Source: Chloroflexota bacterium
Lineage (GTDB): Bacteria > Chloroflexota > UBA4733
Direction of reading: 5' to 3'
Length of the DNA: 64,000 nucleotides
NCBI GenBank assembly: GCA_036734945.1
Contig: DAIMXP010000023.1
Location: 1 to 64,000 of the forward strand
This document shows, piece after piece, positions 27,587-55,296 of the stretch (position 1 is the first letter of the stretch; every line of letters begins with the position of its first letter). A model generated the notes under the pieces. That model was not told the origin of the DNA and searched no databases. It was given only the letters and a program-made list of their open reading frames with translations. The translations under genes and the position numbers were made by a program.

Positions 27587-29127
27587 GTGGCAGACCTCCA
27601 AGCGGTCGGGATCGACCTCGGCACAACCTACTCGTCGGTAGCGATCGTCGATGCCCAGGGCAACGTCCAGCTTATCCCTAACGCCGAGTCCGAACGGTTG
27701 ACGCCGTCGGCTGTCTACTTCGATGACGACTCCATCGTGGTGGGTCAGATTGCCAAGGATAAGGCGGCCAGCGACCCCGATCGGGCGGTGCTCTTTGTCA
27801 AACGCCAGATGGGCAGCCTCCATTGGCTCTTCGGCCACGAGGACCAGCGCTACTCCCCAACCGATGTCTCCGCCATCATCCTGGCAAAGCTCAAGCGGGA
27901 CGCCGAACAGTACCTCAATCGTCCCCTTCCCTACGCCGTCATCACGTGCCTGCCTATTTCGATGACGACCGGCGACGGGCCACCATTGCGGCCGGGGAGC
28001 TAGCGGGCTTCAAGGTGCTTGATCTGGTCAACGAGCCAACCGCTGCGGCGGTCGCCTTCGGCGTGGAACGCAGCACACAGGACGAGACGGTGCTGGTCTA
28101 CGACCTCGGAGGGGGGACGTTCGACGTCACGCTCATGCATGTGGCGGGCAAGCAGATTCGGATCATCGGGACGGATGGAGATCATCAGCTCGGCGGTAAA
28201 GATTTCGACGACGCCATAATGGTGTACGCCGTTGAGGCCTTTCAACGCGAACACGGCTTCGATCCGTCCATTGACCCCTTTGTGGCGGCGGAGTTGCGCG
28301 GTCAAGCTGAACGAGCCAAACGGGAACTGAGCAAGCTGACCAAGGCATCCCTGGCTGTGCGCGCTCAAGGCAAAAGTACGCGCGCTGTGCTTTCCCGCGA
28401 ACAGTTCGAGGCGCTGATCAAGCCAAAGCTGGATACGACACTGGCGCTGGTACGCACGGTCATCACGGAGGCGAAAGTAGCACCCGGACAGGTGGACCGT
28501 GTGCTTCTCATCGGCGGCTCGACGCGCGTGCCGGCGGTGGCCCAGGCACTGGAGCGCTACTTCGGCAAGGCTCCCGATGCTTCCGTGAACCCGGATGAGG
28601 CAGTGGCGCTGGGAGCCGCGCTCATGGCCGCGCGGAAAATGGTCGACGCAGCCCCGTTGGAGGCGCCCCCGAAGGTGATCGAGAAGGTGGGTGGACTGGA
28701 AGTCACCGACGTCTCCGCGCACAGCCTCGGCATCGAAGCCTTCGTTCCCGGCACCAGTCAGCGCCTCAATAGCATCCTGATCCCCCGGAACAGCCCGATC
28801 CCCACGGAAGTCTCGCGCGAGTTCGTGACCGCCCTTCCCGGTCAGACCGCGATCAAGGTCACGATCTATCAAGGTGAATTTCCAGACCCCAACCTCTGTA
28901 ACCCCATCGGGGAGTTCACGCTCACGGGTCTGCCAGCGAACCGTTCGGCAGGACAGAAGGTAAGGGTGACGGTTTCCTGCGGAACCAGCGGTGTGGTGAA
29001 CGTGACTGCACTCGACATCGCCACGGGTCACCAGACTGCCACCGAGGTGAGTTACCGTGGCGACAAGGGTGGCGAAGCCAAGAAGAGCGCCCGAGACCGC
29101 TGGAAGACGGCGAAGCCGATCGTCTGA
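27587..29127 (+). pseudogene. Hsp70-family protein lacking the C-terminal lid, interrupted by a -1 frameshift near 27946
   Basis: N-terminus AVGIDLGTTYSSVAIV. The frame switches after AVIT (expected AVITVPAYF; the sequence atcac|gtgcct lacks 1 nt). The downstream frame reads VPAYFDDDRRRATIAAGELAGFKVLDLVNEPTAAAVAFG. Confidence 0.7.
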
Positions 29128-29193: not shown

Positions 29194-30456
29194 ATGCCGA
29201 ACAATCGCCACCTGGTGAACGACTTCGATATCCTCCGGCCGACGCAACTCCTCGAACGTGGCCTGCCCCTGCCGGGGTTGGACGGCCGTCACATTGTGGA
29301 ACATGGCTGGTGCTGCATCATCACCATCGACGGCGTCTACCAGGAGACGCTGGGGCCAGGTAAACACCACCTCGGTCGCTACCCCTTCTTCGGCAACGTC
29401 AAGGCCACCGCCGTCGATACGCGCATCAAGACGCTCACAATCTCTACCACCCGCGAGTTCACCATCGAGAAGCCCGTGCCGGTAGAGATCAACCTGGATC
29501 TGGCCGTCGAGTATCAGGTGAAGGATGCCCGCCGCGTCGTCCTCGAAGTCGGCCAACCGCTCACCGGACTGTACGACCGGGTGATTCAGGCAGTGCGCGG
29601 CGCCGTCGTCTTTGCGACCGTGGAAGACATCCGCCGTCAGGGTGAGACGATCGCCCAGATGACGCTGCAACGCCTGCAAGCAATGCAGCTCCCAAAGATT
29701 CTCGGCATTGAGGTCTTCACGATACTCGTCAACTCAATCAAGGCGACGGACGCCGGGAACGATGCGCTGGCCGCCCGCCAGATGGAGGAGTACACGCGGG
29801 TGCGCGACTGGCAACTCGATTCGCAAATGCTGTCCCAGTCGCAGATGACGCCGGAGTGGATGCTCATGCATCGACCGGAAGTGTACGCCCAGATGATGGC
29901 CGGCAACCAGGCCCTCATGAAGGAGTTGATCGAACGAGGCATGCTTGACCCGGCCGCCGTTCTGAGCCGACCGGTCGGCGCTACGTACGTTGATCCGCAG
30001 TCTATGCTGGCTGCCTTGACGGGCGGCGCGGCCTCGGCGTTCGGCGGCGTCCCGAGTCTTGGGTCCGGCATCCCCGCGACACACGGCTCTCCGCAGTTGC
30101 CCGAAGCCTTGCCGGGCAGTAGCCAGGCCGCGGCAGGAGGCGACATCATGGCGCGAATGCGCGAGGATATCCGCTACCTCCAGGCGCTGCCGGGAGTGGT
30201 GGTAGAGACCAAGCCCGGCATTGACGACCTCGGCGTGCCCGACGGCTCCTACGACGTGCAGGTGCAACTGCCGCGCAGCTCGGGCGGACGTCTCCAACTG
30301 TACGTGATGTGCCCACGGGGCTACCCACAGCAACCGCCGACCGTCGAACTGGACCTGGACGATCAGCCCACCCCCTTCCAGTCGGCCATCCTGCGGCGCT
30401 GGACCGGGCAGTATCTCGTGGAGATCGCCCGCGAAGCCAAGCAATACTGGGGGTGA
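29194..30456 (+). CDS. SPFH/band-7-like domain protein with a C-terminal E2/RWD/UEV-like (YPxxPP) module
   Basis: SPFH-like block YQETLGPGKHHLGRYPFFGNVKATAVDTRIKTLTISTT...GIEVFTILVNSIKATD. The C-terminus LQLYVMCPRGYPQQPPTVEL resembles the UBC/RWD YPxxPP signature. Confidence 0.5.
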   Translation: MPNNRHLVNDFDILRPTQLLERGLPLPGLDGRHIVEHGWCCIITIDGVYQETLGPGKHHLGRYPFFGNVKATAVDTRIKTLTISTTREFTIEKPVPVEINLDLAVEYQVKDARRVVLEVGQPLTGLYDRVIQAVRGAVVFATVEDIRRQGETIAQMTLQRLQAMQLPKILGIEVFTILVNSIKATDAGNDALAARQMEEYTRVRDWQLDSQMLSQSQMTPEWMLMHRPEVYAQMMAGNQALMKELIERGMLDPAAVLSRPVGATYVDPQSMLAALTGGAASAFGGVPSLGSGIPATHGSPQLPEALPGSSQAAAGGDIMARMREDIRYLQALPGVVVETKPGIDDLGVPDGSYDVQVQLPRSSGGRLQLYVMCPRGYPQQPPTVELDLDDQPTPFQSAILRRWTGQYLVEIAREAKQYWG

Positions 30457-30465
30457 GGGGACAGC

Positions 30466-31203
30466 GTGTCTGACTTCTACCGCGCCCTTCGGGTGATGCC
30501 CTCCGCCACACCGGAGCAGATCGCCAGCGCCTACGCGCGCGAACGCACGCGTGTGGAGACGCCCGGGGACACGCCGGAAACGTCAGTAGCGGCGCGCCTG
30601 ACGGCGATTGAGGAAGCGTACGTCGTGCTCGGTGACCCTGAGCGCCGCGCTGCCTACGATCGGTCGTTGGGCAGTACTCGCGCGCGCGCCTCAACCGTGA
30701 CCGTGCAGGCGCTCGTCGATGCCGAGCCAGAAGCAGGACCTTCCCCGTCGGCGGCCCCACTCGCAACCATCACTCCGTCGACGCCATCGTCGACTGCAGC
30801 CTCACTGAACGCATCCACTATCAACCTCGACTTGCTGTCTCCAGCGCCGACCGTGCGAGCCTGCCCGAATTGCGGCAATTCCAACCCGGTACAGGCGACC
30901 ATCTGCTCGTCCTGTGGCGGGCAGATGACCCGGCCTTGCCCCTATTGCGGCCAGCCGGTGGCCCTCAGCGAAGCCGTCTGCCCACGCTGCCACACCGTTG
31001 TCACGGAGTATGACCAGCGCCGTTTCGCCGTGGCGGTGCAAGGGGACCACCAGGTGCAAGAAGAGCGACGGGATCTCTCGGCCGGGGTGGAGGCACTGGA
31101 GGCTTCCAATGCCCAACGCAACCAGAACGCGCTCATCTTCTGGCTGGTGGCGCTGGCCCTTTTTGTTGGCGTCATCATCTTCCTGGTAAGCCAGGTCCAT
31201 TGA
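30466..31203 (+). CDS. J-domain-like (no HPD) double zinc-ribbon protein with a C-terminal transmembrane anchor
   Basis: FYRALRV...IASAY...LGDPERRAAYDRS is a J-fold with TPGDTP where HPD is expected. Zinc ribbons CPNCG...CSSCG and CPYCG...CPRCH. Terminal hydrophobic helix. Confidence 0.5.
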   Translation: MSDFYRALRVMPSATPEQIASAYARERTRVETPGDTPETSVAARLTAIEEAYVVLGDPERRAAYDRSLGSTRARASTVTVQALVDAEPEAGPSPSAAPLATITPSTPSSTAASLNASTINLDLLSPAPTVRACPNCGNSNPVQATICSSCGGQMTRPCPYCGQPVALSEAVCPRCHTVVTEYDQRRFAVAVQGDHQVQEERRDLSAGVEALEASNAQRNQNALIFWLVALALFVGVIIFLVSQVH

Positions 31204-31940
31204 ATGCTGCAATGACCATGGCAACGCTGCCTCCCGAGACCACCCCGGAGCAGGGTCTGATCTGCAGCAACTGCCACGCGCTCAACTCCGCCGGCGCCAG
31301 CGTCTGCACTGCCTGCGGCGTGCGCCTGGTCAACCTGCCGGACGCCGTTGTTCGGCTACAGGAGATCGAACGGCAAGAGGCGGCCGCGCATGCCGCCATC
31401 CTCCAGGCCAGGACGGCAACACGCATTGACGGCGAGTGGCGGCGAAGCGTGCGCGGACTGCGCCGCCAGATGGTCTGGCTCCTCGCGGCTGCGCTCGTCG
31501 CTGCTGCTGCTGGGCTAGGGGTCATGCGCTTCCACCAACATCAACTCGCCGTTCAGGCTCAACACCTGGCGAGCGACTACGCCGCGGGGATGCTGTGCCT
31601 GAGCGATACCAACTTCCTCTGTGCCCGCGACGACTTCCAGGCGTTGCTGCTGGAGTCCCCAGGCTATCGCGACGCGGCCGACAAACTGCGCGAGGCGCGC
31701 TATGGTCTGGCGCGCCAATACGCGGCGGGCGGCCAATGGCAAAAGGCGCTGGATGAGCTGAACGCTGTGCTCAATCAGAAGCCGGGCGATGCGCAAGCGC
31801 TGACCCAGGAGCACGATGTCTACAACCGCTGGATTGCCGATGTGTCGGGCCACGGCGACTACTTGCAAGCGCTGCGCCTGATTCTGCAGCGCGACGCCCG
31901 TTTTCCTCCCGGCCAGCCGGATATCTACAGGGAGACGTGA
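31200..31940 (+). CDS. Zinc-ribbon / TM / TPR-like repeat protein
   Basis: CSNCHALN...CTACG ribbon, one TM helix and a C-terminal helical repeat region. It overlaps the previous gene by 4 nt. Confidence 0.45.
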   Translation: MNAAMTMATLPPETTPEQGLICSNCHALNSAGASVCTACGVRLVNLPDAVVRLQEIERQEAAAHAAILQARTATRIDGEWRRSVRGLRRQMVWLLAAALVAAAAGLGVMRFHQHQLAVQAQHLASDYAAGMLCLSDTNFLCARDDFQALLLESPGYRDAADKLREARYGLARQYAAGGQWQKALDELNAVLNQKPGDAQALTQEHDVYNRWIADVSGHGDYLQALRLILQRDARFPPGQPDIYRET

Positions 31941-31999: not shown

Positions 32000-32944
32000 A
32001 TGGCAACCTATTACGAGACCTTGCAAGTGCAGCCGACGGCAACGCCTGCCGAGGTCGATGACGCCTGTAACACGCTGTACAACAAGTGGCGGCGGCTGGT
32101 GACGCACCACGACCCGAGCGTGGTAAACCAGGCCAATCAGGCGTTGCAGCAGGTGGATGCGATCCGCTCCACGCTGAGTGACCCGGTCCGGCGCTCCGCC
32201 TATGACGAGGGCATCGGGTTGAATGGGGCGATTGGCGGGCTGGCGGACCCAGAGGCGGTGCTACGGGCAATGCCGGTCGTGACGATGGCGCCGCCCTCTC
32301 CGCCGCCCCCTCGACCATTGGCTGGTCCACCTGCGCAGGTAGCCGCCAGTCGGCCGGGGCTGTGGGCGTGCCCCAAGAAGGGGTGCGGCGCCGAAAACCC
32401 TCCCAATACGAAGTTCTGCTTCAAGTGTGGGACGCAGTTGGTGCAAGAGTGCCCCGAGTGTAAGAAAATGTCATCGCTGATCTCGACGAGTTTCTGCGGG
32501 GAGTGCGGTTACCGCTACAGCATAGCTAGCGAGCGGGCTGCGACGTTAGCGGCTTGGCTGGAACTACAGCAGAATGTCGAGCGGCAAAATGGGGAACTGG
32601 GAATGCTTCAGGAACAGCGCAACCACATGAAGTATGGTGGGCACATCTTCTGGATGATCGTGTTCGGGTTGGGAGCACTTGGAGTATTTTTAGGGGCGCA
32701 CTCTGACTATGAAAAGGGAGGTGCTGTGGGTGTGAGTGTGAGTGTGAGTGTGAGTGTCGTCCTCGGTGCCTTCTTGGTGGGGATTGTCGTCCTTATTGGA
32801 GTGGGGTACAGCAGCAAGCAGAAGGAGAAGGCGAAGGCTGACGCCGCCATCGTCGCCAAGCGCAGCGAGATTGAGCGAACGACTCAGATGATGGCCGGCT
32901 CGGCTCAGGTGTATCAGCAGCTTGGACAGCGCAAAGCGGGGTGA
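32000..32944 (+). CDS. J-domain-like (HHD variant) zinc-ribbon membrane protein
   Basis: YYETLQV...LVTHHDPSVVNQANQ...LSDPVRRSAYDEG. Ribbons CPKKGCG...CFKCG and CPECK...CGECG. Coiled-coil and 2 TM helices with a VS repeat encoded by (GTGAGT)n. Confidence 0.5.
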   Translation: MATYYETLQVQPTATPAEVDDACNTLYNKWRRLVTHHDPSVVNQANQALQQVDAIRSTLSDPVRRSAYDEGIGLNGAIGGLADPEAVLRAMPVVTMAPPSPPPPRPLAGPPAQVAASRPGLWACPKKGCGAENPPNTKFCFKCGTQLVQECPECKKMSSLISTSFCGECGYRYSIASERAATLAAWLELQQNVERQNGELGMLQEQRNHMKYGGHIFWMIVFGLGALGVFLGAHSDYEKGGAVGVSVSVSVSVVLGAFLVGIVVLIGVGYSSKQKEKAKADAAIVAKRSEIERTTQMMAGSAQVYQQLGQRKAG

Positions 32945-33005
32945 GATTCTGGGGTGTGACGCAAAGTAGTACGCAGCAAGCGAACGACGTGAGTACCAAA
33001 GAGCA

Positions 33006-33500
33006 CAGGGCCGCGATTGCGGGCCCAGAGGGCGCCCCCGGCCAAGTTACCGGGGCGACTGCGGTCGCTTGGGTGGGGGAGGACGGTTGGGGGCAAGGGA
33101 CGTTCGATGGGTTGGGAACAGGGCCGCGATTGCGATCGGCGGCCAAGGACGGAGGGCGACTGCGGTCGCTTGGGTGGGGACCGACGGTTGGAAAAGGCGA
33201 AAGATTGGTTCATCTTGAACAGGGCCGCGATTGCGATCGACGGCCAAGTGACGAGGGCGACTGCGGTCGCTTGGGTGGGGACCGACGGTTGCATATTCAC
33301 AGCGCCTCGGCCCCTGCTCCCCTTCACCATTCCTTGCCTCCCGCAACCGTCCTTACCCTGTCAAGCGACCGCAGTCGCCCCCGTCACTTGGCCGCCGATC
33401 GCAATCGCGGCCCTGTACTCCCCCACCCACCTTCCCGCAGCCTCCCCCAACCGCACTCCCCCGGCCAAGCGACCGCAGTCGCCGCCCTGCGATCTCCCTA
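33006..33500. repeat. Family-B REP/BIME-like cluster with three direct and two inverted copies of a roughly 50-75 bp unit (GGGCCGCGATTGCGATCGGCGGCCAAGTGACGGGGGCGACTGCGGTCGCTTGG)
   Basis: Units were read directly from the sequence. Each holds two hairpins (GGCCGC..GCGGCC and GCGAC-TGCG-GTCGC). The same unit recurs at 37.8 and 55.2 kb. Confidence 0.7.
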
Positions 33501-33549
33501 ACTAAACCGTATTGGGCGTTCACCTCAATCTCGCGTTGGGAGCCTAACT

Positions 33550-36546
33550 ATGCAGTTCCCCTATATCTTCCTTTCCAGCCGTGAATTCGTCCAGGAGGCT
33601 GTCGACTTCGACAACAATCATGGTGTGACCTACCGGGAGGTCGGCGGCGAGCATGCCATCTGGGCGGCGCGGGTGCCGTTCGTCCCAGCGATGATGTCGG
33701 AGGACTTCACGCGCCTTGGCCGGGAACGCATCCGGCTCATCATGGAGCGCCAGTTCCATTTCATCTACGACCTCGCCCGGCTGCGGGAGCATCGCGCTAC
33801 CTTTGAGCTCCGCTTCATCGCCACGCCCAATCCGGTCCCCGGCCAACCCAACCTGATCGACATGGTCTTCCTCGGCAAGGTCTTCGCGACGCGCTTCCGG
33901 GGCGGCCAGCCGCTGGCGGAACGGCTCTGGGAGAAGTTCCAGGCGACGTTTCCGGTGGAGGACCCCTTCAACTATCCGCTGGAGCCGGTGACCAACGAGG
34001 CGGAGTTTCGGAGTTACCTGGAGCCGATCCCTACCGCCAACCTCACGGCGGACTGTCTGCTCGAAATCCGCAAGTATGAAGACATGCCGATTCGCAGCAC
34101 GGCAGCGCTTGGCCGCCTGGAGCGAACCGGTGACTATGTCGCCCACCCCTTCGTCCCCTGCGTCGACTTCAACCCCATGGGCCGCTTCCTGGCGGCGCTC
34201 GCCCGCGAACCGCAACGCTGCCTGGTGGGTATCAGTCTGCGGCCTGTACGCATGTTCGACCAGGAAATCTTCAATGTCAGCTATGCCATCGGCCAATTCA
34301 AGAAGACCATCGGCGACGACGCTGGCGTCACCGAGGAGTACATCCGCTCGCGGGCCGGCATCGGCACCTTCGTCTATCAACAGTTGATGCAGGAACGCGA
34401 GGGCCTGGTGCTGGTGCGCGTTCACCTGGTGGGCGAGGACCACGCGCCTTACGGCCTCGCCGGCGCGCTTGGCTCCGAGATGATGGGCAACGCCGAGAAC
34501 GTCTACCCGACGCAGTGGTCCGCCGCCCAGCCGGCCGACGAGCACGAATTCGCTACTGCCGTCGCCAACCTGCGCTTCTTGGAGCAGGCGCACTGGGGCC
34601 ACACGATTGCGCCCTTACCACTCCAGCGCCTCCGCTACTTTGCCACTGCGCGCGAAGCATATGGCGCGTTTCGGCTGCCTGTCCCTTCCGAGTCCGGCTA
34701 CCTCCCCGGCGTGCTGGTCAAGAGTGAACCATTCGTCGCGCCGGCTGACGAATTGGAACTGCGCGAGCAGGCCCGTGCCAACCGCAACGATGCGCTCGCA
34801 GCCTCCACCGAGCAGGCCCGCAACCGCAAGGTCGGCCTTGGCGTAGTCTACCACCGCGGTTCAGCCACCGCGCAGGCATTCCGACTCAATGTGCGCGACC
34901 TCACCCGCCACGCGCTCATCGCCGGCTCCACCGGCAGCGGCAAGAGCACGACCGTCAAGCACATTCTGGTGCAGCTCTGGCTGGAGCACCGTGTCCCCTT
35001 CCTGGTCCTGTACCCGGTCGATAAGCCCGACTACCGCGAGCTGCGCGGCTTCCCGGCACTGGCCGACGAGTTACTCGTGTTCACGTTGGGTGACGAGAGC
35101 ACGTCGCCCTTCCGCTTCAACCCTTTTGAGGTACCGGATGGCCTGCTGCTCAAGACGCACCTCTCTCGCCTCATGCGAGTCTTCACCGCTGCCTTCAGCC
35201 TCCAGGATCCTCTGCCCATGATCTATCGAGAGGCGCTTCGCCAGGTCTATCGGGAGAAGGGCTGGGACATTGTCCTGGAACGCGGCGAATCGAGCCGCGA
35301 CTATCCGACCATGGCGGAGTTCTATGCGGCGATCAAACGCATTGCCGACGGGCTGGAGTACGGCCGCGAGGTCAAGGATACCGTTCGCCAGGCCTCCGTC
35401 ATCCGCATTGGCGATTTGCTGGAGAATGCCGGCCACGTCGTCAACGTGCGCCGATCTATGCCGCTCGGCAAAATTCTGAACCAGCCCACGATCATGGAGT
35501 TGGGCCGCGTCGGCTCCGCCCAGGACACCGCGCTGCTGATGGGCTTCCTGTTGATGCGCTTCACCGAGGAAGTGGAGCGTCACCCGCGTCACGCCGAGCA
35601 CCCGCACATCACCGTGATCGAGGAGGCTCACCGTCTGATGGCGGAGACGGGGCCACGCTCCGAGTCGGGCGGTGACACGCGCGGCGCGGCCGGCGAGGAC
35701 TTTGCCAATATCCTGGCGGAGGTGCGCGGCTTCGGTGAGGGCATCATCATCGCTGAGCAGATTCCCACGTTACTGGTCAAAGGCGCCATCGGCAACACCT
35801 ATCTGAAAATCATGCACTGGCTGGAGGACGCGCCGAGCTTTGAGTCCTTCGCCGACATGATGAACCTCAACGCGGAGCAACGGGAGTACGCCCGCACCCT
35901 CACGCCCGGCTTCGCCCTCCTGCGTAATCCCTACGGTCGCCCGGTCCACGTCAAGGTACCGGAGTTCGGCGATCAGCCGGGCTACTGCCGCGAGGCCCTG
36001 CCCGACAGCTCCGACGCGAGCATTCGCGCCTTTATGGAGACGCAGCGGCAGAAGCTGGCGCTGGGCGACGTACCGGTTGACCCGTGGGATATCAGTCTCA
36101 GCGCCGGTGGGTCTGCCGCCGGGGCCACTCAGGCGGGGGCGGAGCTGCTGCAGTTGCTCGTGGCGGCGCCTATGGCAACCTGCGCCTACTGTGCCCCGTT
36201 ACACGCCACGAAGCGCTGCCGCTATGCCGGGGCGGTGCGCCGCCGTCTGCTCAGCGACTCCGCCTTCGATCAGGCCCGGCAGGAGGAGCTGCGTTCCGTG
36301 CTGGCACAGGAACAGCAATCAGACCTCTGGTTGGAAACGCGCGGCTGGGGCGCCCGCGTAGAAGAGCGGGTACGATCGGTCACGCCGGCCGACCGACGCG
36401 GCATCGTCTACTGCTACCTGGCGCACTCTGCCGACAGTATGGCGCGGGGAGCATCGGCGAAGGCGGAGGGGACAACGCCCGAGGTTCGCCGCGCCCGCGG
36501 CCTGCTCCAGCAATTTGAAGCAGAATACCCAAAGCCGGAAGGATGA
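33550..36546 (+). CDS. HerA/FtsK-type P-loop ATPase (DUF87-like) with a large uncharacterised N-terminal domain and a Cys-rich C-terminal region
   Basis: 998 aa. Walker A LIAGSTGSGKSTTV at about residue 450. Walker B HITVIEEAHRL (hhhhDEAH, characteristic of HerA/VirB4/FtsK). C-terminal CAYCAPLH..KRC. Confidence 0.6.
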   Translation: MQFPYIFLSSREFVQEAVDFDNNHGVTYREVGGEHAIWAARVPFVPAMMSEDFTRLGRERIRLIMERQFHFIYDLARLREHRATFELRFIATPNPVPGQPNLIDMVFLGKVFATRFRGGQPLAERLWEKFQATFPVEDPFNYPLEPVTNEAEFRSYLEPIPTANLTADCLLEIRKYEDMPIRSTAALGRLERTGDYVAHPFVPCVDFNPMGRFLAALAREPQRCLVGISLRPVRMFDQEIFNVSYAIGQFKKTIGDDAGVTEEYIRSRAGIGTFVYQQLMQEREGLVLVRVHLVGEDHAPYGLAGALGSEMMGNAENVYPTQWSAAQPADEHEFATAVANLRFLEQAHWGHTIAPLPLQRLRYFATAREAYGAFRLPVPSESGYLPGVLVKSEPFVAPADELELREQARANRNDALAASTEQARNRKVGLGVVYHRGSATAQAFRLNVRDLTRHALIAGSTGSGKSTTVKHILVQLWLEHRVPFLVLYPVDKPDYRELRGFPALADELLVFTLGDESTSPFRFNPFEVPDGLLLKTHLSRLMRVFTAAFSLQDPLPMIYREALRQVYREKGWDIVLERGESSRDYPTMAEFYAAIKRIADGLEYGREVKDTVRQASVIRIGDLLENAGHVVNVRRSMPLGKILNQPTIMELGRVGSAQDTALLMGFLLMRFTEEVERHPRHAEHPHITVIEEAHRLMAETGPRSESGGDTRGAAGEDFANILAEVRGFGEGIIIAEQIPTLLVKGAIGNTYLKIMHWLEDAPSFESFADMMNLNAEQREYARTLTPGFALLRNPYGRPVHVKVPEFGDQPGYCREALPDSSDASIRAFMETQRQKLALGDVPVDPWDISLSAGGSAAGATQAGAELLQLLVAAPMATCAYCAPLHATKRCRYAGAVRRRLLSDSAFDQARQEELRSVLAQEQQSDLWLETRGWGARVEERVRSVTPADRRGIVYCYLAHSADSMARGASAKAEGTTPEVRRARGLLQQFEAEYPKPEG

Positions 36547-36553
36547 CCGCACA

Positions 36554-36841
36554 GTGAGCGACTTCACCTTCGACCCTGCGGCTGCCGACGCCATTGATGC
36601 AGCGGTAAACACCGCCTCACTCGACGTCAGCGGCCCGGCCCTGGAAGTACCGGAGGTGCAGGCCGACGCCGACGTGCCCGATGTCGTTCCGGCTGGCGAC
36701 GACACTACCCTCGCCACGATCCATCCGCCAGAACAGCCGGAGATCGAGCCCCACATGGAAAACGAGCCCGTCACCATCGAGACGGGCGGTAAGTCGCTGG
36801 AGCCGCCGGAAGGCTGGACTCCCCGTGGTCCCGAGGGGTGA
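36554..36841 (+). CDS. Small acidic hypothetical protein
   Basis: Asp/Glu/Pro-rich and abuts the ATPase gene. The start is uncertain (36515 ATG overlaps the previous CDS; 36554 GTG). Confidence 0.3.
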   Translation: MSDFTFDPAAADAIDAAVNTASLDVSGPALEVPEVQADADVPDVVPAGDDTTLATIHPPEQPEIEPHMENEPVTIETGGKSLEPPEGWTPRGPEG

Positions 36842-37458
36842 TAGCGATGGACGACATCGATGTCGCCGAGCCACCAACACCCGAAGTACTTGACGCACCG
36901 GCGACGGACGACGGCCAGGGAAGCCTGGATGGCTCTGTCGACTACACCATGGAGACGGATCTGCAGGTGCAGGATGCCACCGATGCGCTGCAGCAACTCG
37001 ACGGCATCTCCCCAGCTACCTGGCAAACGCTGGATGCCCAGGGCCGATTGGAGGCCCTGCAGAGCGTGGAGGACAGTATGGCGGCCGTGCAGGGTCGCCC
37101 GGGCTTGTCCGTTGAAGCGGAGGCCCTCGGCCCCGGTGTCTGCGGCGCCTACGACGGGTCGCGGCTCGTTGTGAACGCCGAGCAACTTGACAGTGCAACG
37201 CCTGTCGGTGAATTTGTGGACACTGTTGTTCACGAGGATCGCCACGCCTTCCAGGACTTCGCGGTGAGCCATCCCGGCACGGTGACCGATGGCACAGTGG
37301 TCGGGGCCTGGGCAGCGAATATGGAGCCTGGGCAGTACCTCAGTGCCGAAGACTACGGTCTAGAGGCCTACGCCGCCCAACCGATCGAAGCGGATGCCTG
37401 GGCCTATGCAGGCCGCATTGCCCAGGGCCTCGGGCTGCCCCGACTGGAGTCGGAATAG
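36838..37458 (+). CDS. Putative zincin-like metallopeptidase (HExxH) with an acidic N-terminus
   Basis: TVVHEDRHAFQD contains HEDRH (HExxH). Overlaps the upstream stop (GTGA). ATG at 36847 is an alternative start. Confidence 0.45.
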   Translation: MIAMDDIDVAEPPTPEVLDAPATDDGQGSLDGSVDYTMETDLQVQDATDALQQLDGISPATWQTLDAQGRLEALQSVEDSMAAVQGRPGLSVEAEALGPGVCGAYDGSRLVVNAEQLDSATPVGEFVDTVVHEDRHAFQDFAVSHPGTVTDGTVVGAWAANMEPGQYLSAEDYGLEAYAAQPIEADAWAYAGRIAQGLGLPRLESE

Positions 37459-37780
37459 GATGGAGATGGAACGCGATACTGTCGTGTCCCGACTGGTAGA
37501 GGAATTCGGCTATCCGCTTCACGGTGCATCGTTAGTAGCCGACAAGTTACTCGCGCTCTCACCACCAGTGCGCGAGGCCTTCATCTCGTGGTGGGACGGC
37601 GGACCCTTGCCCAGCCTCGAAATCTCGGGGGAAACCGTCCGCACCCTCATGGATCAGCACGGTCAACAGCCGATCGCCGCCTTCCTAACGCTCGACTGGC
37701 TCCAGCGCGACCCAGTCGCGGCGCGACGGGTACTACGAAAAGGTCACGATAGCGTCCGCTTCCCAGGACGCCACGTGTAG
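37459..37780 (+). CDS. Hypothetical small protein
   Basis: ATG immediately after the previous stop. 107 aa with no known motif. Confidence 0.3.
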
Positions 37781-37843
37781 GAATGGCGATGGGTGCGCCG
37801 CAAAATCCTGCACAGAAAGCGAACGGTATTTAGTGGCGTGTTA

Positions 37844-37974
37844 CAGGGCCGCGATTGCGATCGGCGGCCAAGTGACGGGGGCGACTGCGGTCGCGTTGCG
37901 AACCGTCGACGGCGCATCCAAGCGACCGCAGTCGCCCCCGTCACTTGGCCGCCGATCGCAATCGCGGCCTTGTA
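37844..37974. repeat. Family-B REP-like palindromic element (unit + 27-bp spacer + inverted unit)
   Basis: Near-perfect inverted pair of CAGGGCCGCGATTGCGATCGGCGGCCAAGTGACGGGGGCGACTGCGGTCGC. Confidence 0.7.
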
Positions 37975-38062: not shown

Positions 38063-41000
38063 TCATTCGTTCGCCACCAGCAAGCCCCCCAACCCTGCTT
38101 CCGCCAGCGTGGCGTTGAACGGTGGCAGGTCGTCGCGCAGCAGCGCCTGGTACCGCTCGATTTGTGCCTGGCAGAGCTGCGTCAGGTGCTGGAACACCTC
38201 CTCATACTGACGCGGTGGGGCGGCGTCGGCGCTGTCGACCATGCTGGCGAGGATGGCCAGGCGGGCGTTGAGTCGGTTGAGGGGGCCGAGCGCGCTGGCG
38301 GCCTTCGGTTCGACCAGTTCCTGCTCGATGGCCGTCAAGCGCTCCACCAGGGTATCGCCGGCCTGCTGGATGCGGTCCGCTGCTGCGTTGCCTTTGCTGC
38401 GCCGTTGCCAGTCTTGCACCTGCTGGCGCAGGTCGCGCAGTTGGAGGACAGTGCGATGGACAGCGCTCAACTGCTCGTTTATACGGCCGTGCAGGTCGGC
38501 CAACGCCTGCAGGTCCTGCTCGCTCGCCGCGATACGCGGGTCCTTCAACACGGTATATTGGGCAGTCTGGACGAGTTCGCCGGCGCGCAGTTGCACCTGG
38601 TACTCGCCAGGGGGCACGAGCGGTCCTTTCAGCAGCTTCTCGGTGGCGGCATCGCCGGGCAAGGCTACGGCATCGGCGCGCCGCAGGTTCCAGACGAAGC
38701 GGTTCACGCCAACCTTGGTGGGAAGAGTAGGCGCACCGTCACCCTTGGTGGCCCCTTCCTTCTTGGCAGTGCCGGACTCAGACGTGTCGCCTTCACTGGA
38801 ATAGGAGCGGAGCTCAGTGCCGGCGCTATCCAGAACGGTGAGTGTGAGCGGCTGGGTCGGCGATTCGCTCAGCAGGTAGGTGACGACGACGCCATCCTTG
38901 GGGTTCTCCCCGGCATCAACGAGGTCCTCCACCTGCTCGCCCTGCTGGTTGCGATGGCGGCGCAGCGGGACACGCAGCGGGCCGCTGTTGCGGAAGTCGT
39001 TGGCGGCAGTACCGTTCGCCTCCCGTCCGTAGTTGCGCAGGCGAAAGGTCGGCTTCGGCGTGAATAGGTGAGCCGGCTCGGCTGCCGCTGCCGGATCAAG
39101 CTGACGCAGTGGGGTGATGTCGTCCAGAATCCAGAAGGAACGGCCGTGCGTGGCGGCGACCAGTTCGTCCCCTTTGATCGCCAAATCGTAGACGGGCACG
39201 ACCGGCAGGTTGCCGCGCGCCGGACGCCATAAGGCTCCGTCGTCGAAGGAGACGTAGAGGCCAGTCTCCGTGCCGGCGACAAGCAGGCCGCGACGCACCG
39301 GGTCGGCGCGGATCACGCGCGTGAAAACGTTGGCAGGCAGACCTTGCACGATGCGCTGCCAACTCTGGCCGTAGTCGCTGGTCTTGTAGAGGTAGGGTCG
39401 GAAGTCGTCCAGCTTGTAGCGGGTGGCGGCGATGTAGGCGGCGCCGGCGTCATAGGGTGACGGTTCAATAACGCTGATCAGGGTCCATTCCGGCAGGTCC
39501 GGCGGCGTGATGTTGGTCCAGGTCTGGCCGTTGTCGCGGGAGAGGTGGACCAGACCGTCGTCCGTGCCTGCCCAGAACAGGCCTGCCTGGTGGGGCGACT
39601 CCACAAAGGCAAAGATGGTGCCGTAGAGTTCGGCTCCGGTGTTGTCGCGCGTGATCGGCCCGCCGGAGGGCAGCATCTTTTGCGGGTCGTTGCGAGAGAG
39701 GTCCGGGCTGATCTCCTCCCAGGTGGAACCGAGGTCGCTGGAGCGCAGCGCCTTGTTGGCGGTGACGTAGAGGACGTTCGGGTCGTGGGGCGAGAAGGAT
39801 ATGGGGAAGGTCCACTGGAAGCGGTACTTGAGGTCGGCGCCGCTGCTGCCCATGCCCATGACGTCGGGCCAGACGGTGATGTTGCGCTTCTGGCCGCTGC
39901 GATGGTCGTAGCAGATCAGCCGGCCATGGCCGGAGCCGCTGCCGATGGCGCCACCAACGATGATGTTCTGGTCATCCGGCTTGAGGGCGATATAGCCGCT
40001 TTCGCCACCGCCCGGCTCAAACCAATCAAGCTGGGTGATAGCGCCCGAACTGGTGCGGCTGGGCAACGACAACGCCGAGTTGTCTTGCTGCGAGCCGTAG
40101 ACACGGTAGGGGAACTGATCGTCGGTGGCGACGTGGTAGAACTGGCCGGTGGGCTGGTTGTAAACGGAGGACCAGGAGAGGCCGCCGTCAAAACTCACCG
40201 TCGCGCCACCATCGTGACCCAGGATAAGCCGCCGCGGGTTGGTTGGATCCATCCAGAGGTCGTGGTTGTCGCCGTGGGCCGTCGGCACGGCGCTGAAGGT
40301 GATCCCGCCGTCGATGGAGCGCCAGCAACCAACGTTGAGCACCCACACGGTATCGGCATCTTGCGGGTCGGCGTGGATGTGCATGTAGTACCAGGCGCGG
40401 CGGCGCAGATCATTCTCTTCGCACAGCCGCGTCCATGTAGCGCCACCATCATCGGAACGGAAGACAGCGCCATCTTCGGACTCCACGATGGCCCAGAGGC
40501 GGTCGCGCCGGGCCGGGGAGGCGGCGATGCCGATCTTGCCGCGCACGCCGGTGGGCAAGCCGGGGTTACTCGTCAACTCCTGCCAGGTGTCGCCGCCGTC
40601 GGTCGATTTGAAGAGCCCCGAGCCGGGCCCGCCGCTGGTCAAGCTCCAGGGGGTGCGCCGGACCTCCCAGAGCGCCGCGTAGAGCACGCGCGGGTTGTGG
40701 GGGTCGAGCACGAGGTCGCAGGCGCCGGTATCTTCGTTGCGGAACAGCATGCGCTGCCAATGCGCGCCGCCGTCTACGGAGCGAAAGATACCCCGCTCGC
40801 TATTCGGGCCGTTGGCGTGTCCCAGCGCGGCCACGTAGACGAGGTCCGGGTTCGTTGGGTGTACGCGGACCTTGGCAATGTGCCTGGTGTCTTCCAGTCC
40901 GACGTTGATCCAGGTGGCGCCGGCGTCGGTGCTGCGATAGACGCCGTCACCATGGGACACGTCGCCGCGGATGCAGGCTTCGCCGGCGCCGACGTAGAGC

Positions 41001-41305
41001 ACGTTGGGATCGGACGGCGCCACGGCAACCGCGCCGATGGCGGCAGTGTGCAGATAGCCGTCGGTGATGTTGCGCCAGGAGATACCGCCATCGACGGTCT
41101 TCCAGACGCCGCCGGCACAGGCGCCGTGGTAGAAGGTCAACGGCTCGGCCGGGTCGCCGGCCACCGCCACCACGCGCCCGGCCCGGTGCGGCCCGATCAG
41201 CCGCCAGCGCATGAGGCCGGCAAGGGTATCGTCCAACGGTGCTTCTTCACGTGTCGTCAATTGATCCCGCTCCCTCGCTATCAGGTCGGAGCATAGCACA
41301 GGCAC
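38063..41305 (-). CDS. BNR/Asp-box repeat protein (sortilin/VPS10- or GH74-like beta-propeller)
   Basis: At least 9 SxDxGxTW Asp-box motifs (STDAGATW, SVDGGAHW, STDGGDTW, SDDGGATW, SIDGGITF, SFDGGLSW, SRDNGQTW, TSDYGQSW, SFDDGALW). 1080 aa. Internal Met at 41212 is an alternative start. Confidence 0.65.
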   Translation of the reverse strand: MPVLCSDLIARERDQLTTREEAPLDDTLAGLMRWRLIGPHRAGRVVAVAGDPAEPLTFYHGACAGGVWKTVDGGISWRNITDGYLHTAAIGAVAVAPSDPNVLYVGAGEACIRGDVSHGDGVYRSTDAGATWINVGLEDTRHIAKVRVHPTNPDLVYVAALGHANGPNSERGIFRSVDGGAHWQRMLFRNEDTGACDLVLDPHNPRVLYAALWEVRRTPWSLTSGGPGSGLFKSTDGGDTWQELTSNPGLPTGVRGKIGIAASPARRDRLWAIVESEDGAVFRSDDGGATWTRLCEENDLRRRAWYYMHIHADPQDADTVWVLNVGCWRSIDGGITFSAVPTAHGDNHDLWMDPTNPRRLILGHDGGATVSFDGGLSWSSVYNQPTGQFYHVATDDQFPYRVYGSQQDNSALSLPSRTSSGAITQLDWFEPGGGESGYIALKPDDQNIIVGGAIGSGSGHGRLICYDHRSGQKRNITVWPDVMGMGSSGADLKYRFQWTFPISFSPHDPNVLYVTANKALRSSDLGSTWEEISPDLSRNDPQKMLPSGGPITRDNTGAELYGTIFAFVESPHQAGLFWAGTDDGLVHLSRDNGQTWTNITPPDLPEWTLISVIEPSPYDAGAAYIAATRYKLDDFRPYLYKTSDYGQSWQRIVQGLPANVFTRVIRADPVRRGLLVAGTETGLYVSFDDGALWRPARGNLPVVPVYDLAIKGDELVAATHGRSFWILDDITPLRQLDPAAAAEPAHLFTPKPTFRLRNYGREANGTAANDFRNSGPLRVPLRRHRNQQGEQVEDLVDAGENPKDGVVVTYLLSESPTQPLTLTVLDSAGTELRSYSSEGDTSESGTAKKEGATKGDGAPTLPTKVGVNRFVWNLRRADAVALPGDAATEKLLKGPLVPPGEYQVQLRAGELVQTAQYTVLKDPRIAASEQDLQALADLHGRINEQLSAVHRTVLQLRDLRQQVQDWQRRSKGNAAADRIQQAGDTLVERLTAIEQELVEPKAASALGPLNRLNARLAILASMVDSADAAPPRQYEEVFQHLTQLCQAQIERYQALLRDDLPPFNATLAEAGLGGLLVANE

Positions 41306-55173: not shown

Positions 55174-55296
55174 GGCCGCGACTGCGATCGGCGGCCAAGC
55201 TAACGGGGCGACTGCCGTCGCCTGCATCATCGGATGACACGGTGCGATGCGACGGCAGTCGCCCCGTTAGCTTGGCCGCCGATCGCAATCGCGGCC
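55174..55296. repeat. Family-B REP-like palindromic element (inverted pair), preceded by a conserved leader-like TGATGCAAAGCAGTGCGCAGCAAGCGAG that is also found before the 33.0-kb cluster
   Basis: GGCCGCGACTGCGATCGGCGGCCAAGCTAACGGGGCGACTGCCGTCGCC / inverse copy. Confidence 0.65.

Follow-up and report, generated by a model that had tools for sequence, protein, structure and literature searches.

A VirB4-like ATPase at the centre of a rare operon with Hsp70, SPFH-RWD and zinc-ribbon membrane proteins and acidic-leader effectors in Chloroflexota

The ATPase and its gene

We analysed a stretch of 64,000 nucleotides from a Chloroflexota bacterium (assembly GCA_036734945.1, contig DAIMXP010000023.1), hereafter the window, to which all coordinates refer unless a locus is named; L-numbers denote loci or contexts of relatives, L001-L003 being assemblies of the window locus itself. 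Our subject is the ATPase encoded at 33550..36546 on the forward strand. It forms the conserved centre of an operon of several genes that is rare, occurs mostly in filamentous Chloroflexota and ends in a hypervariable 3' cassette. The gene is the sixth of a co-directional block. A first inspection of the locus (the sequence-only reading) had picked out the ATPase and the two genes behind it, and had missed the upstream half of the system, consisting of an Hsp70, an SPFH-RWD protein and J-like zinc-ribbon membrane proteins.

The open reading frame (ORF) starts with ATG, 7 nucleotides downstream of a ribosome-binding site (GGGAG), and encodes 998 residues. It was confirmed as a real gene by the 184 homologues found in a search of 5.8 billion proteins (about 120 full length, 41-73% identity; the named ones came from Chloroflexota, i.e. 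Anaerolineae, Ardenticatenaceae, Chlorohelix and Oscillochloris (OSCT_0926)) and by an AlphaFold2 model with a mean predicted local distance difference test score of 83.6, in which one P-loop domain is present. An alignment of 36 sequences contained invariant residues over the full length of the protein, the N-terminal half included. The Walker A motif GSTGSGKST was found at residues 459-467 (34924-34950) as first read, with G459, T461, G462, G464 and K465 invariant. The Walker B motif ITVIEEAHRL (35608-35637) was likewise where it had been placed, but its reading as a DEAH motif did not hold, as E691 and E692 are both invariant (EEAH). Two ORFs on the reverse strand, 33544-34602 (352 residues) and 36319-37272 (317 residues), overlap the ATPase and downstream genes; both are typical artefacts of high GC content (65%), and public contigs call no gene there.

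The family is rare: a phmmer search with the N-terminal domain against 1.84 billion cluster representatives returned 164 proteins at E <= 1e-3, of which 70 reached E <= 1e-10. This rarity and the patchy distribution argue against a housekeeping role, which was rejected.

Three parts were distinguished in the protein: residues 1-430 (33550..34839), with the fold of the VirB4 N-terminal domain, residues 431-810 (34840..35979), a RecA-like P-loop core of the VirB4/DptH/HerA type, and residues 811-998 (35980..36546), a helical tail with a conserved Cys/His motif. In Pfam, DUF87 (33.2 bits) covered only the P-loop (residues 443-489) and FtsK_SpoIIIE (PF01580) only residues 441-481, at 23.3 bits and thus below the gathering cutoff of 24; CagE_TrbE_VirB, TraC and AAA_10 gave no match. 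The NCBIfam matches to CedD, HerA, VirB4_plasma and TrbC were weak and all far under their cutoffs (e.g. 16 bits against 590 for VirB4_plasma and 16.8 against 800 for TrbC). The PADLOC model mad8 matched residues 451-803 (2.1e-13) and the HerA models spanned 30-115 residues, and a profile search of the PDB returned the DUF87 protein 8yho (4e-13), HerA and coupling proteins. Since the Pfam, NCBIfam and PADLOC scans reached the level of the P-loop only, the N-terminal 430 residues could not be named from sequence libraries. No sequence-family match was found for them, in agreement with their initial description as unrecognised; their fold, however, could be recognised as that of the VirB4 N-terminal domain. 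The match is thus to a known translocase family, although VirB4 is not a housekeeping one.

Structural comparison ranked the C-terminal domain of DptH (score 17.5) and that of VirB4 (4ag5, 17.3) highest, together with HerA-Sir2 and HerA (both 16.7), followed by TcpA (15.1), DotL and EccC (both 14.3), TrwB (13.5) and full-length TrwK/VirB4 (13.3, with 435 residues aligned). The assignment of the core to the HerA/VirB4/FtsK clade was therefore correct, being reached by Pfam, PADLOC, the PDB profile and fold matches alike. With the VirB4 N-domain fold on one side and the structural matches of the core on the other, the ATPase is VirB4-like in both halves; we conclude that it is a soluble (no transmembrane (TM) segment in a Kyte-Doolittle scan), divergent two-domain VirB4-like ATPase with a lineage-specific helical tail, and not a HerA with a new domain. 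The tail had been called Cys-rich, which did not survive: it contains only four Cys (C878, C881, C890 and C955), and the conserved arrangement C878-x2-C881-x8-C890 ... C955-x3-H959 looks, from sequence, like a metal-site-like CxxC...C...C/H motif. Several subgroups lack the tail or have a different one, and in the Chloroflexia and Chlorohelix subgroups it is not conserved.

Membership of the ATPase in the FtsK, EssC and HerA-NurA families was rejected on domain, TM and partner tests. A HAS-barrel was absent, the central HerA domain was not full-length, and Pfam and PADLOC scans of nine neighbours revealed no NurA, SIR2 or DUF4297 partner; the FtsK/SpoIIIE domain stayed below threshold and no N-terminal TM segment was present; compared with EssC/EccC, there is a single P-loop domain, no TM segment and no WXG100 match among the neighbours. 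Nor is the protein filed as a VirB4 of a type IV secretion system (T4SS), because the sequence models failed and every T4SS-defining partner is absent. As had been noted at the outset, no relaxase, T4SS or sporulation genes lie within 10 kb on either side of the ATPase, and no VirB3/6/8, VirD4 or relaxase was found among the Pfam-annotated genes of five other related loci. Mating-pair-formation partners were seen only near a distant relative that shares just the core, a DUF87 ATPase on plasmid pRoPD630_2 of Rhodococcus opacus, situated between MobC/relaxase and a VirD4-type coupling protein, which is consistent with descent of the ATPase from conjugative VirB4s.

These data bear on one possible role of the operon, as a remnant or unconventional apparatus for conjugation or DNA uptake, with the acidic proteins described below acting as DNA-mimic anti-restriction factors. 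The VirB4 fold in both ATPase halves, the core-only relatives within true conjugation loci and the weak CedD, VirB4_plasma and TrbC matches would fit such a role, but neither in the window nor in 27 related loci was there a relaxase, coupling protein, VirB6/VirB8-like protein, integrase or oriT-like context, acidic regions are fused to toxin domains, and the operon is chromosomal with uniform GC content. We therefore regard a DNA-transfer role as very improbable, in line with the original opinion that a conjugation or FtsK role was unlikely; no conjugation or FtsK context was found.

Genes upstream of the ATPase

All genes of the block lie on the forward strand. The DnaK-like Hsp70 gene (27587..29127; NCBIfam DnaK, 9e-91), which encodes about 515 residues in relatives, is split in the window by a deletion of one nucleotide near position 27953 (ATCACG-TGCCTGCC instead of the expected ATCACGGTGCCTGCC) into ORFs 27587-28003 and 27823-29127. 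The identical split is present in three independent assemblies (L001-L003); it reflects a genuine pseudogene, recoding, or an assembly error common to all three.

The next gene (29194..30456) encodes an SPFH/Band-7 protein (Pfam Band_7, 7e-11) with a C-terminal RWD/UBC-like domain (YPQQPP motif); the Kyte-Doolittle scan detected no TM segment. Its C-terminus (containing LYVMCPRGYPQQPPTVELD) belongs to a region that Pfam RWD matches in 12 of the 13 family members, with 7.5e-5 as the best value; in the PDB, a profile of this region matched E2 enzymes, FANCL and the RWD domain of GCN2. The HPN motif and the catalytic Cys were not seen in it, for which reason it looks like an inactive E2 fold.

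Three genes for zinc-ribbon membrane proteins follow. The first (30466..31203) combines a J-like domain (Pfam DnaJ, 33.3 bits) with a double zinc ribbon (DZR, 35.4 bits) and a tail-anchor TM segment (residues 219-245), the second (31212..31940; operon position conserved, weak Pfam Zn_ribbon/TPR matches) a zinc ribbon with a TM segment (residues 86-108) and TPR, and the third (32000..32944) a J-like domain with HHDP in place of HPD (DnaJ, 26.8 bits) with a double zinc ribbon (DZR, 36 bits) and two TM segments. Across related loci the family occurs in tandem, in one to eight or more copies. Of 44 paralogues, only 1 has HPD, the catalytic tripeptide of J-domains, and 21 have HHDP (consensus W(R)xLVTHHDP; Pfam DnaJ scores of 26.8-41.5 bits), the window copies having HHDP or none. 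The paralogues have a common cytosolic N-terminal module and diverge after the TM segment, and some of their ectodomains contain a PD40 beta-propeller (1e-62), an FGE-sulfatase (FGS) domain (2e-29) or BACON.

The downstream cassette

Directly behind the ATPase, on the same strand, lie genes for a small acidic protein (36554..36841; 95 residues, 21 D/E against 2 K/R), for a zincin-like protein of 203 residues with an HExxH motif and an acidic N-terminus (36847..37458), and for a 106-residue protein that co-occurs with it (37460..37780; p106), which is immunity-, inhibitor- or chaperone-like and had no Pfam or PDB match. The acidic protein ends in PPEGWTPRGPEG, a motif that returns as PPKDWTPGGPERG at the end of its counterpart in L008 and as PPPGWSPGGEHG in the distant L061; the form common to the acidic first downstream ORFs is PPxGW(T/S)PxG. 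In most loci with the N-domain, the first ORF after the ATPase stop codon starts within a few bases and is strongly acidic (D/E fraction 0.22-0.40 and K/R below 0.1 over the first 100 residues). The acidic region is a separate small protein, as in the window, or the N-terminus of a protein with a variable C-terminal domain.

The effector slot was found occupied by very different domains. The HExxH domain is present in the window and 11 other loci (fused to 300-350 acidic residues in L014 and L017). Other loci have a TNT NADase (1.5e-30; in actinobacterial relatives, seen only in metagenome-assembled genomes such as L040 and L045) followed by a homologous small ORF, an Endonuclease_NS followed by a YezG-like ORF (a 'faint' match), a UPF0102/YraN nuclease followed by a YbjN-like protein, a basic HNH-like protein followed by a YbjN/TY-Chap1 protein resembling chaperones of type III secretion systems (T3SS), a Peptidase_C39_2 (1.6e-14), a second zincin (DUF6782, 8e-6) followed by a PsbP-like protein, a weak match to ParB_N, or an alpha/beta-hydrolase-like domain. 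The 3' cassette appears to follow the grammar of polymorphic effectors: an acidic leader and variable C-terminal domains were seen, while the small genes at the 3' side were only weakly assignable (YezG faint, YbjN-like, PsbP-like).

The HExxH protein itself (H129-E130-x-x-H133, i.e. HEDRH, with a downstream QPxExDA) is, as judged from its sequence, a minimal gluzincin-like domain. In the family alignment the H, E, H and Q of HExxHxxQ and the Q, E and D of QPxExDA are invariant, and the P and A nearly so. Similarity to DUF6782, SprT-like and M76 was weak in Pfam, and nothing significant was found in the PDB profile search. A family search gave 150 matches, of which the 120 listed are all standalone proteins of 126-345 residues with no Pfam annotation; among these 120 no fusion to LXG, RHS or PAAR was present. 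Three distant members adjoin a homologous ATPase (34-36% core identity), in one case in the order ATPase, 61-residue protein, HExxH and in two cases in the order HExxH, zinc-ribbon TM protein, ATPase, GrpE, Hsp70, Hsp70-vWA. The pair was also found in Deltaproteobacteria, Bacteriovoracaceae, Syntrophorhabdales and Acidobacteriota, where the locus has two Hsp70s and a J protein. The proposal that the small acidic and HExxH proteins are partners of the ATPase was thus borne out, with the HExxH family and an acidic-leader ORF following ATPase relatives across phyla. The idea that HExxH is a mere interchangeable domain of polymorphic toxins was rejected, since the 120 members listed are all standalone and the family tracks the ATPases and Hsp70 across phyla. 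The widest conserved core consists of Hsp70, a zinc-ribbon membrane protein, the VirB4/HerA-type ATPase and the HExxH zincin; Chloroflexota add the SPFH-RWD scaffold, and some lineages swap the zincin for other effectors. In one distant relative (L091, 3505-3948), a called 'gene' of 147 residues between Hsp70 and HExxH/ATPase is a tandem DNA repeat (LSRCLHLSQCLHLS).

Conservation of the operon

We sampled five contexts by exact-protein look-up and 79 loci from GTDB genomes, and compared every ORF in them with jackhmmer profiles built from the window proteins. Neighbours were counted in the 27 distinct loci whose ATPase closely shares the N-domain. SPFH was found adjacent to the ATPase in at least 18 of the 27, the RWD domain in 18, J-like/zinc-ribbon proteins (1-8 tandem copies) in 16, p106 in 12, HExxH in 11-12 and an intact Hsp70 orthologue preceding the operon in 11. 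The loci without SPFH were mostly on truncated contigs or had a 10-kb upstream flank full of J-like paralogues.

Several lineages have their own version of the operon. In the Chloroflexia (Oscillochloris and Chloroploca) the Hsp70/J part is replaced by RWD-TM proteins, JAB-RWD, an E2 of the type found in cyclic-oligonucleotide-based anti-phage signalling systems (CBASS) and a ThiF E1. For instance, in Oscillochloris trichoides (L004, 473-8585) three RWD-TM genes, E2-CBASS, a JAB-like-RWD gene and ThiF lie directly upstream of SPFH-RWD, with no gene for a ubiquitin-like protein seen at this cluster; the JAB motif of the Chloroflexia JAB-RWD protein was read by eye and has no Pfam match on record. 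Ardenticatenaceae-like loci have two TM-anchored SPFH-RWD genes downstream, and in one Anaerolineaceae genome (L006, 14149-20482) ThiF-GntR, Prok-RING_1, UQ_con+YukD, YukD, JAB, FHA and vWA genes form a complete E1/RING/E2-YukD/JAB/FHA/vWA cluster just downstream. In a metagenome-assembled genome of the Chloroflexia (L032, 6274-12740) the whole operon (Hsp70, SPFH, RWD, zinc-ribbon protein and ATPase) is broken into many short ORFs, including 5 pieces of Hsp70 and about 7 of the ATPase, as a result either of decay or of a long-read assembly rich in errors.

A homologue outside the Chloroflexota is encoded on the mobilizable plasmid pN447-3.1 of Priestia megaterium (L088, 106849-109740). This hypothetical protein of 963 residues aligns with residues 36-791 of the window protein, N-domain included, at 28% identity, and its gene is preceded by an ORF of 140 and followed by one of 1135 residues, neither with a Pfam match. 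P. megaterium, a cultured and genetically tractable member of the Bacillota, is a possible experimental model.

The conserved neighbours raise the question whether the operon encodes a quality-control machine for membrane proteins or the envelope, a split analogue of FtsH-HflK/C that would process or extract the tail-anchored zinc-ribbon proteins in filamentous bacteria, with SPFH forming a cage, the ATPase acting as unfoldase, the zincin as protease and Hsp70 and the J-like proteins as co-chaperones. SPFH proteins are known as scaffolds of membrane proteases, as in HflK/C-FtsH, the J-like zinc-ribbon proteins of the window are tail-anchored, and both the cross-phylum core (Hsp70, zinc-ribbon TM protein, ATPase and HExxH) and the lack of any toxin-trafficking fusion of HExxH among the 120 of 150 matches listed would be in line with it. 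Nevertheless, the zincin is replaced by nucleases, a TNT NADase or a cysteine peptidase in many loci, where a dedicated protease machine makes no sense; moreover, the ATPase family is rare and patchy and the operon context is not syntenic between genomes. A quality-control function thus appears improbable.

Flanking repeats and genes

The operon region has a uniform GC content and is bordered by repeats. A supposed ORF of 186 residues (32941-33501) was rejected as a gene, being part of an intergenic array of palindromic repeats resembling repetitive extragenic palindromes or miniature inverted-repeat transposable elements (REP/MITE-like), with a spacing of 101 nucleotides (32945..33549). The array differs by exactly one unit between two metagenome assemblies of this locus (a gap of 605 nucleotides in L001 and 504 in L002). 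A REP/MITE-like hairpin with arms of 53 nucleotides (98% complementary) closes the operon at 37842..37974. The dispersed element, with core GGCCGCGATTGCGATCGNCGGCCAAG...GGCGACTGCGGTCGC and long hairpins, occurs at 33001-33500, 37842-37974 and 55174-55296; 7 copies of the core were observed in the window against 0 expected by chance. Rfam yielded only sub-threshold miRNA-hairpin models for these repeats, i.e. generic long hairpins, and a scan for promoters and terminators gave a signal at the level of shuffled sequence. The flanking genes are housekeeping genes (shikimate and prephenate enzymes, a BNR/sortilin protein and a glycosyltransferase). Directly downstream and convergent (38063-41305, reverse strand) lies the gene for the 1080-residue BNR/Asp-box, Sortilin-Vps10-like beta-propeller protein, to which no link was seen in other loci.

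Comparison with known systems

With VirB4/TrwK/TraC of T4SS the ATPase shares the N-domain fold and a RecA-like core with Walker A and B motifs. It differs in failing all curated VirB4 sequence models (7-11% identity), in having EE where those proteins have DE in Walker B, in its extra helical tail of 190 residues with the Cys/His motif, and in its context, which lacks VirB3/6/8/10, VirD4 and relaxase and instead ties it to Hsp70, SPFH-RWD, zinc-ribbon membrane proteins and acidic-leader effectors. In type VII secretion systems (T7SS) an ATPase of the FtsK superfamily (EssC/EccC) adjoins leader-bearing toxins whose C-terminal domains vary (e.g. TNT and Endonuclease_NS) and small cognate YezG-like proteins, as here; both are found in mostly monoderm lineages, and an EccE-like fold is present. 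However, the window system has one ATPase domain, no TM segment or FHA domain and no WXG100/LXG, EssA/B or EsaA, and its leader is acidic and of low complexity, in contrast to the helical hairpin of T7SS.

Another likeness is to the chaperone-gated conflict systems, i.e. GAP1-N2 GTPase systems with Hsp70/GrpE, DnaJ-fused membrane proteins and FGS-domain components (Kaur et al. 2020, eLife e52696; PMC7159879). Shared features are a dedicated Hsp70, J-domain proteins fused to TM segments and extracellular repeats, FGS domains, zinc ribbons, a bias to filamentous or multicellular bacteria and variable effectors. The central NTPase is different (a VirB4-like ATPase and not a GTPase or MoxR), as are the presence of an SPFH-RWD scaffold and the J-like HHDP instead of HPD.

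The nearest published description, compared by description only, is that of 'EccE3-HerA' from extended Type III-A CoCoNuT loci, in which an N-domain resembling EccE3 is joined to a VirB4-like ATPase and accompanied by a helical partner of small size (Bell et al. 2024, eLife RP94800; PMC11090510). The window ATPase has this architecture of an EccE3-like N-domain and a VirB4-like ATPase, although its N-domain matches that of VirB4 far better than EccE, and the operon is without McrB/McrC (McrBC/CnuBC), a vWA pair or a CARF context. From SIR2-HerA/Nezha, DUF4297-HerA and DptH/SspH/mad8 systems it is set apart by the absence of a HAS-barrel and of SIR2, DUF4297, DptFG and Dnd/Ssp partners, by a VirB4-like N-domain and by effectors with acidic leaders and small partners; the PADLOC matches to the HerA-based and DptH/SspH/mad8 systems cover parts of the core only. 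Using PADLOC-DB v2, we found neither a full-length match nor the cognate partners (Dpt/Ssp, MADS, SIR2-HerA), and the nine neighbours gave no convincing match, the DruE/TniQ matches to the zinc-ribbon region of one of them being marginal (E 2e-4 to 5e-3).

The anti-phage function first proposed for the ATPase is therefore not established by partial matches to the ATPase core in the absence of a SIR2 or DUF4297 partner, yet defence remains a live alternative, the chief one to the export reading given below. In its most explicit form, the operon would be an intracellular anti-invader system of the abortive-infection type, in which the hexamer or the Hsp70/J-like battery senses infection and ATP-dependent remodelling frees or activates the acidic-leader effector (zincin, nuclease or NADase) inside the cell. 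The system could be triggered by DNA injected at the membrane or by phage proteins that Hsp70 has captured, and the small partner could be an antitoxin. We consider this possible, if on balance unlikely. The mad8 and HerA matches in PADLOC, the core being equally close to DptH and HerA-Sir2, the 'EccE3-HerA' ATPase of the CoCoNuT defence loci (PMC11090510), and the Hsp70/GrpE/vWA links, a parallel to the chaperone-gated conflict systems known from multicellular bacteria (PMC7159879), all point in this direction, as does an effector repertoire (nuclease, NADase, peptidase and hydrolase) like that of abortive-infection systems. The genomic context is also suggestive: L008 lies among CBASS, restriction-modification and NB-ARC genes, L047 adjoins a C5-methyltransferase-like gene (identified by eye from sequence), and E1/E2-CBASS/JAB/RWD genes flank the Chloroflexia versions. 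On the other hand, no known defence system was called, none of the nine neighbours was convincingly matched by PADLOC, and the window locus is flanked by housekeeping genes; the variable ectodomains and the genes for T3SS-chaperone-like and PsbP-like adaptors point outward, and the VirB4 N-domain is a docking module for membrane complexes.

We found no description in the literature of an operon with Hsp70, SPFH-RWD, J-like zinc-ribbon proteins, a VirB4-like ATPase and acidic-leader proteins, and it is unmentioned in a survey of polymorphic toxins (PMC3482391) and in a paper on ubiquitin antecedents (PMC1779556). The system thus appears to be undescribed.

A possible role in effector export

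The reading that we tentatively prefer, at somewhat less than an even chance, sees the ATPase as exporting effectors with acidic leaders by threading them, and the operon as a stripped-down, T4SS-derived system for toxin export or effector deployment in inter-microbial conflict. It is possible, with greater doubt, that this constitutes the first example to be recognised of a new class of protein-translocation system, made up of a channel-less VirB4-derived ATPase, Hsp70, J/zinc-ribbon receptors and SPFH-RWD, which would export effectors or deploy them on demand by means of a polyanionic, DNA-mimicking leader. Members of the ATPase superfamily pump DNA, and for T7SS and T4SS it is established that FtsK/VirB4/VirD4-type ATPases drive the export of proteins (PMC3482391).

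In the mechanism that we envisage, the ATPase would form a hexamer like those of VirB4 and HerA, docked at the membrane through its VirB4-type N-domain, with the zinc-ribbon membrane proteins, the SPFH-RWD scaffold or both serving as docking platform. In the R388 complex it is this N-domain that docks VirB4 to its membrane-protein partners, VirB3 and VirB8. The effector's polyanionic leader would engage a central pore descended from a DNA pump, and ATP hydrolysis would unfold the effector and thread it out of the cytoplasm. Membrane-tethered J-like domains may recruit the dedicated Hsp70, which would hold or hand over the cargo, and within the producing cell the small partner protein would neutralise the effector or serve as its chaperone. 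A polyanionic leader is nearly universal on the effector next to the ATPase, which suggests that a pore of DNA-pump ancestry uses it as the handle on its substrate. Export is favoured by components that face outward, by adaptor genes of the T3SS-chaperone-like and PsbP-like kinds, by the range of toxins and by the absence of signal peptides. Variable effectors (TNT, nucleases and C39-like peptidase) lie directly 3' of the ATPase gene, and membrane orientation is indicated by the TM anchors and the PD40, FGE-sulfatase and BACON ectodomains.

Several observations weigh against export. No VirB3/6/8/10, VirD4 or obvious polytopic pore protein was found in the window, the ATPase has no TM segment of its own, and the Hsp70 gene of the window is frameshifted. 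For all members, export is something that we infer. Assignments of immunity proteins are weak (YezG 'faint', p106 no match), and in some loci (e.g. L010) there are several effectors with no intervening immunity gene. HExxH is a wide partner of ATPases and of Hsp70/GrpE/vWA across phyla, a partnership that fits an intracellular chaperone-gated machine as well as cargo. In addition, DptH and HerA-Sir2, both defence ATPases, are among the core's closest matches in structure, and some loci lie in defence islands, such as L008 with its CBASS, restriction-modification and NB-ARC genes.

Conclusions

In type IV secretion and conjugation, VirB4 counts as the universal signature ATPase. The conserved VirB4-like protein of this operon operates with no other part of a T4SS; its partners are a private battery of Hsp70 and J-like proteins, a scaffold of the SPFH-E2-like type and swappable acidic-leader toxins. 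The homologue on plasmid pN447-3.1 of P. megaterium offers an entry point in a cultured host. If export is indeed what the operon serves, it would represent a new minimal route of secretion or effector deployment in filamentous bacteria of the monoderm type (Chloroflexota, plus relatives among the Actinomycetota and Bacillota); otherwise it may be a new chaperone-gated immune system. The fold and pore of a DNA pump would also have been re-purposed for acidic polypeptide substrates, and bacterial SPFH, RWD/E2-like and E1/JAB components would be linked to an ATPase machine.

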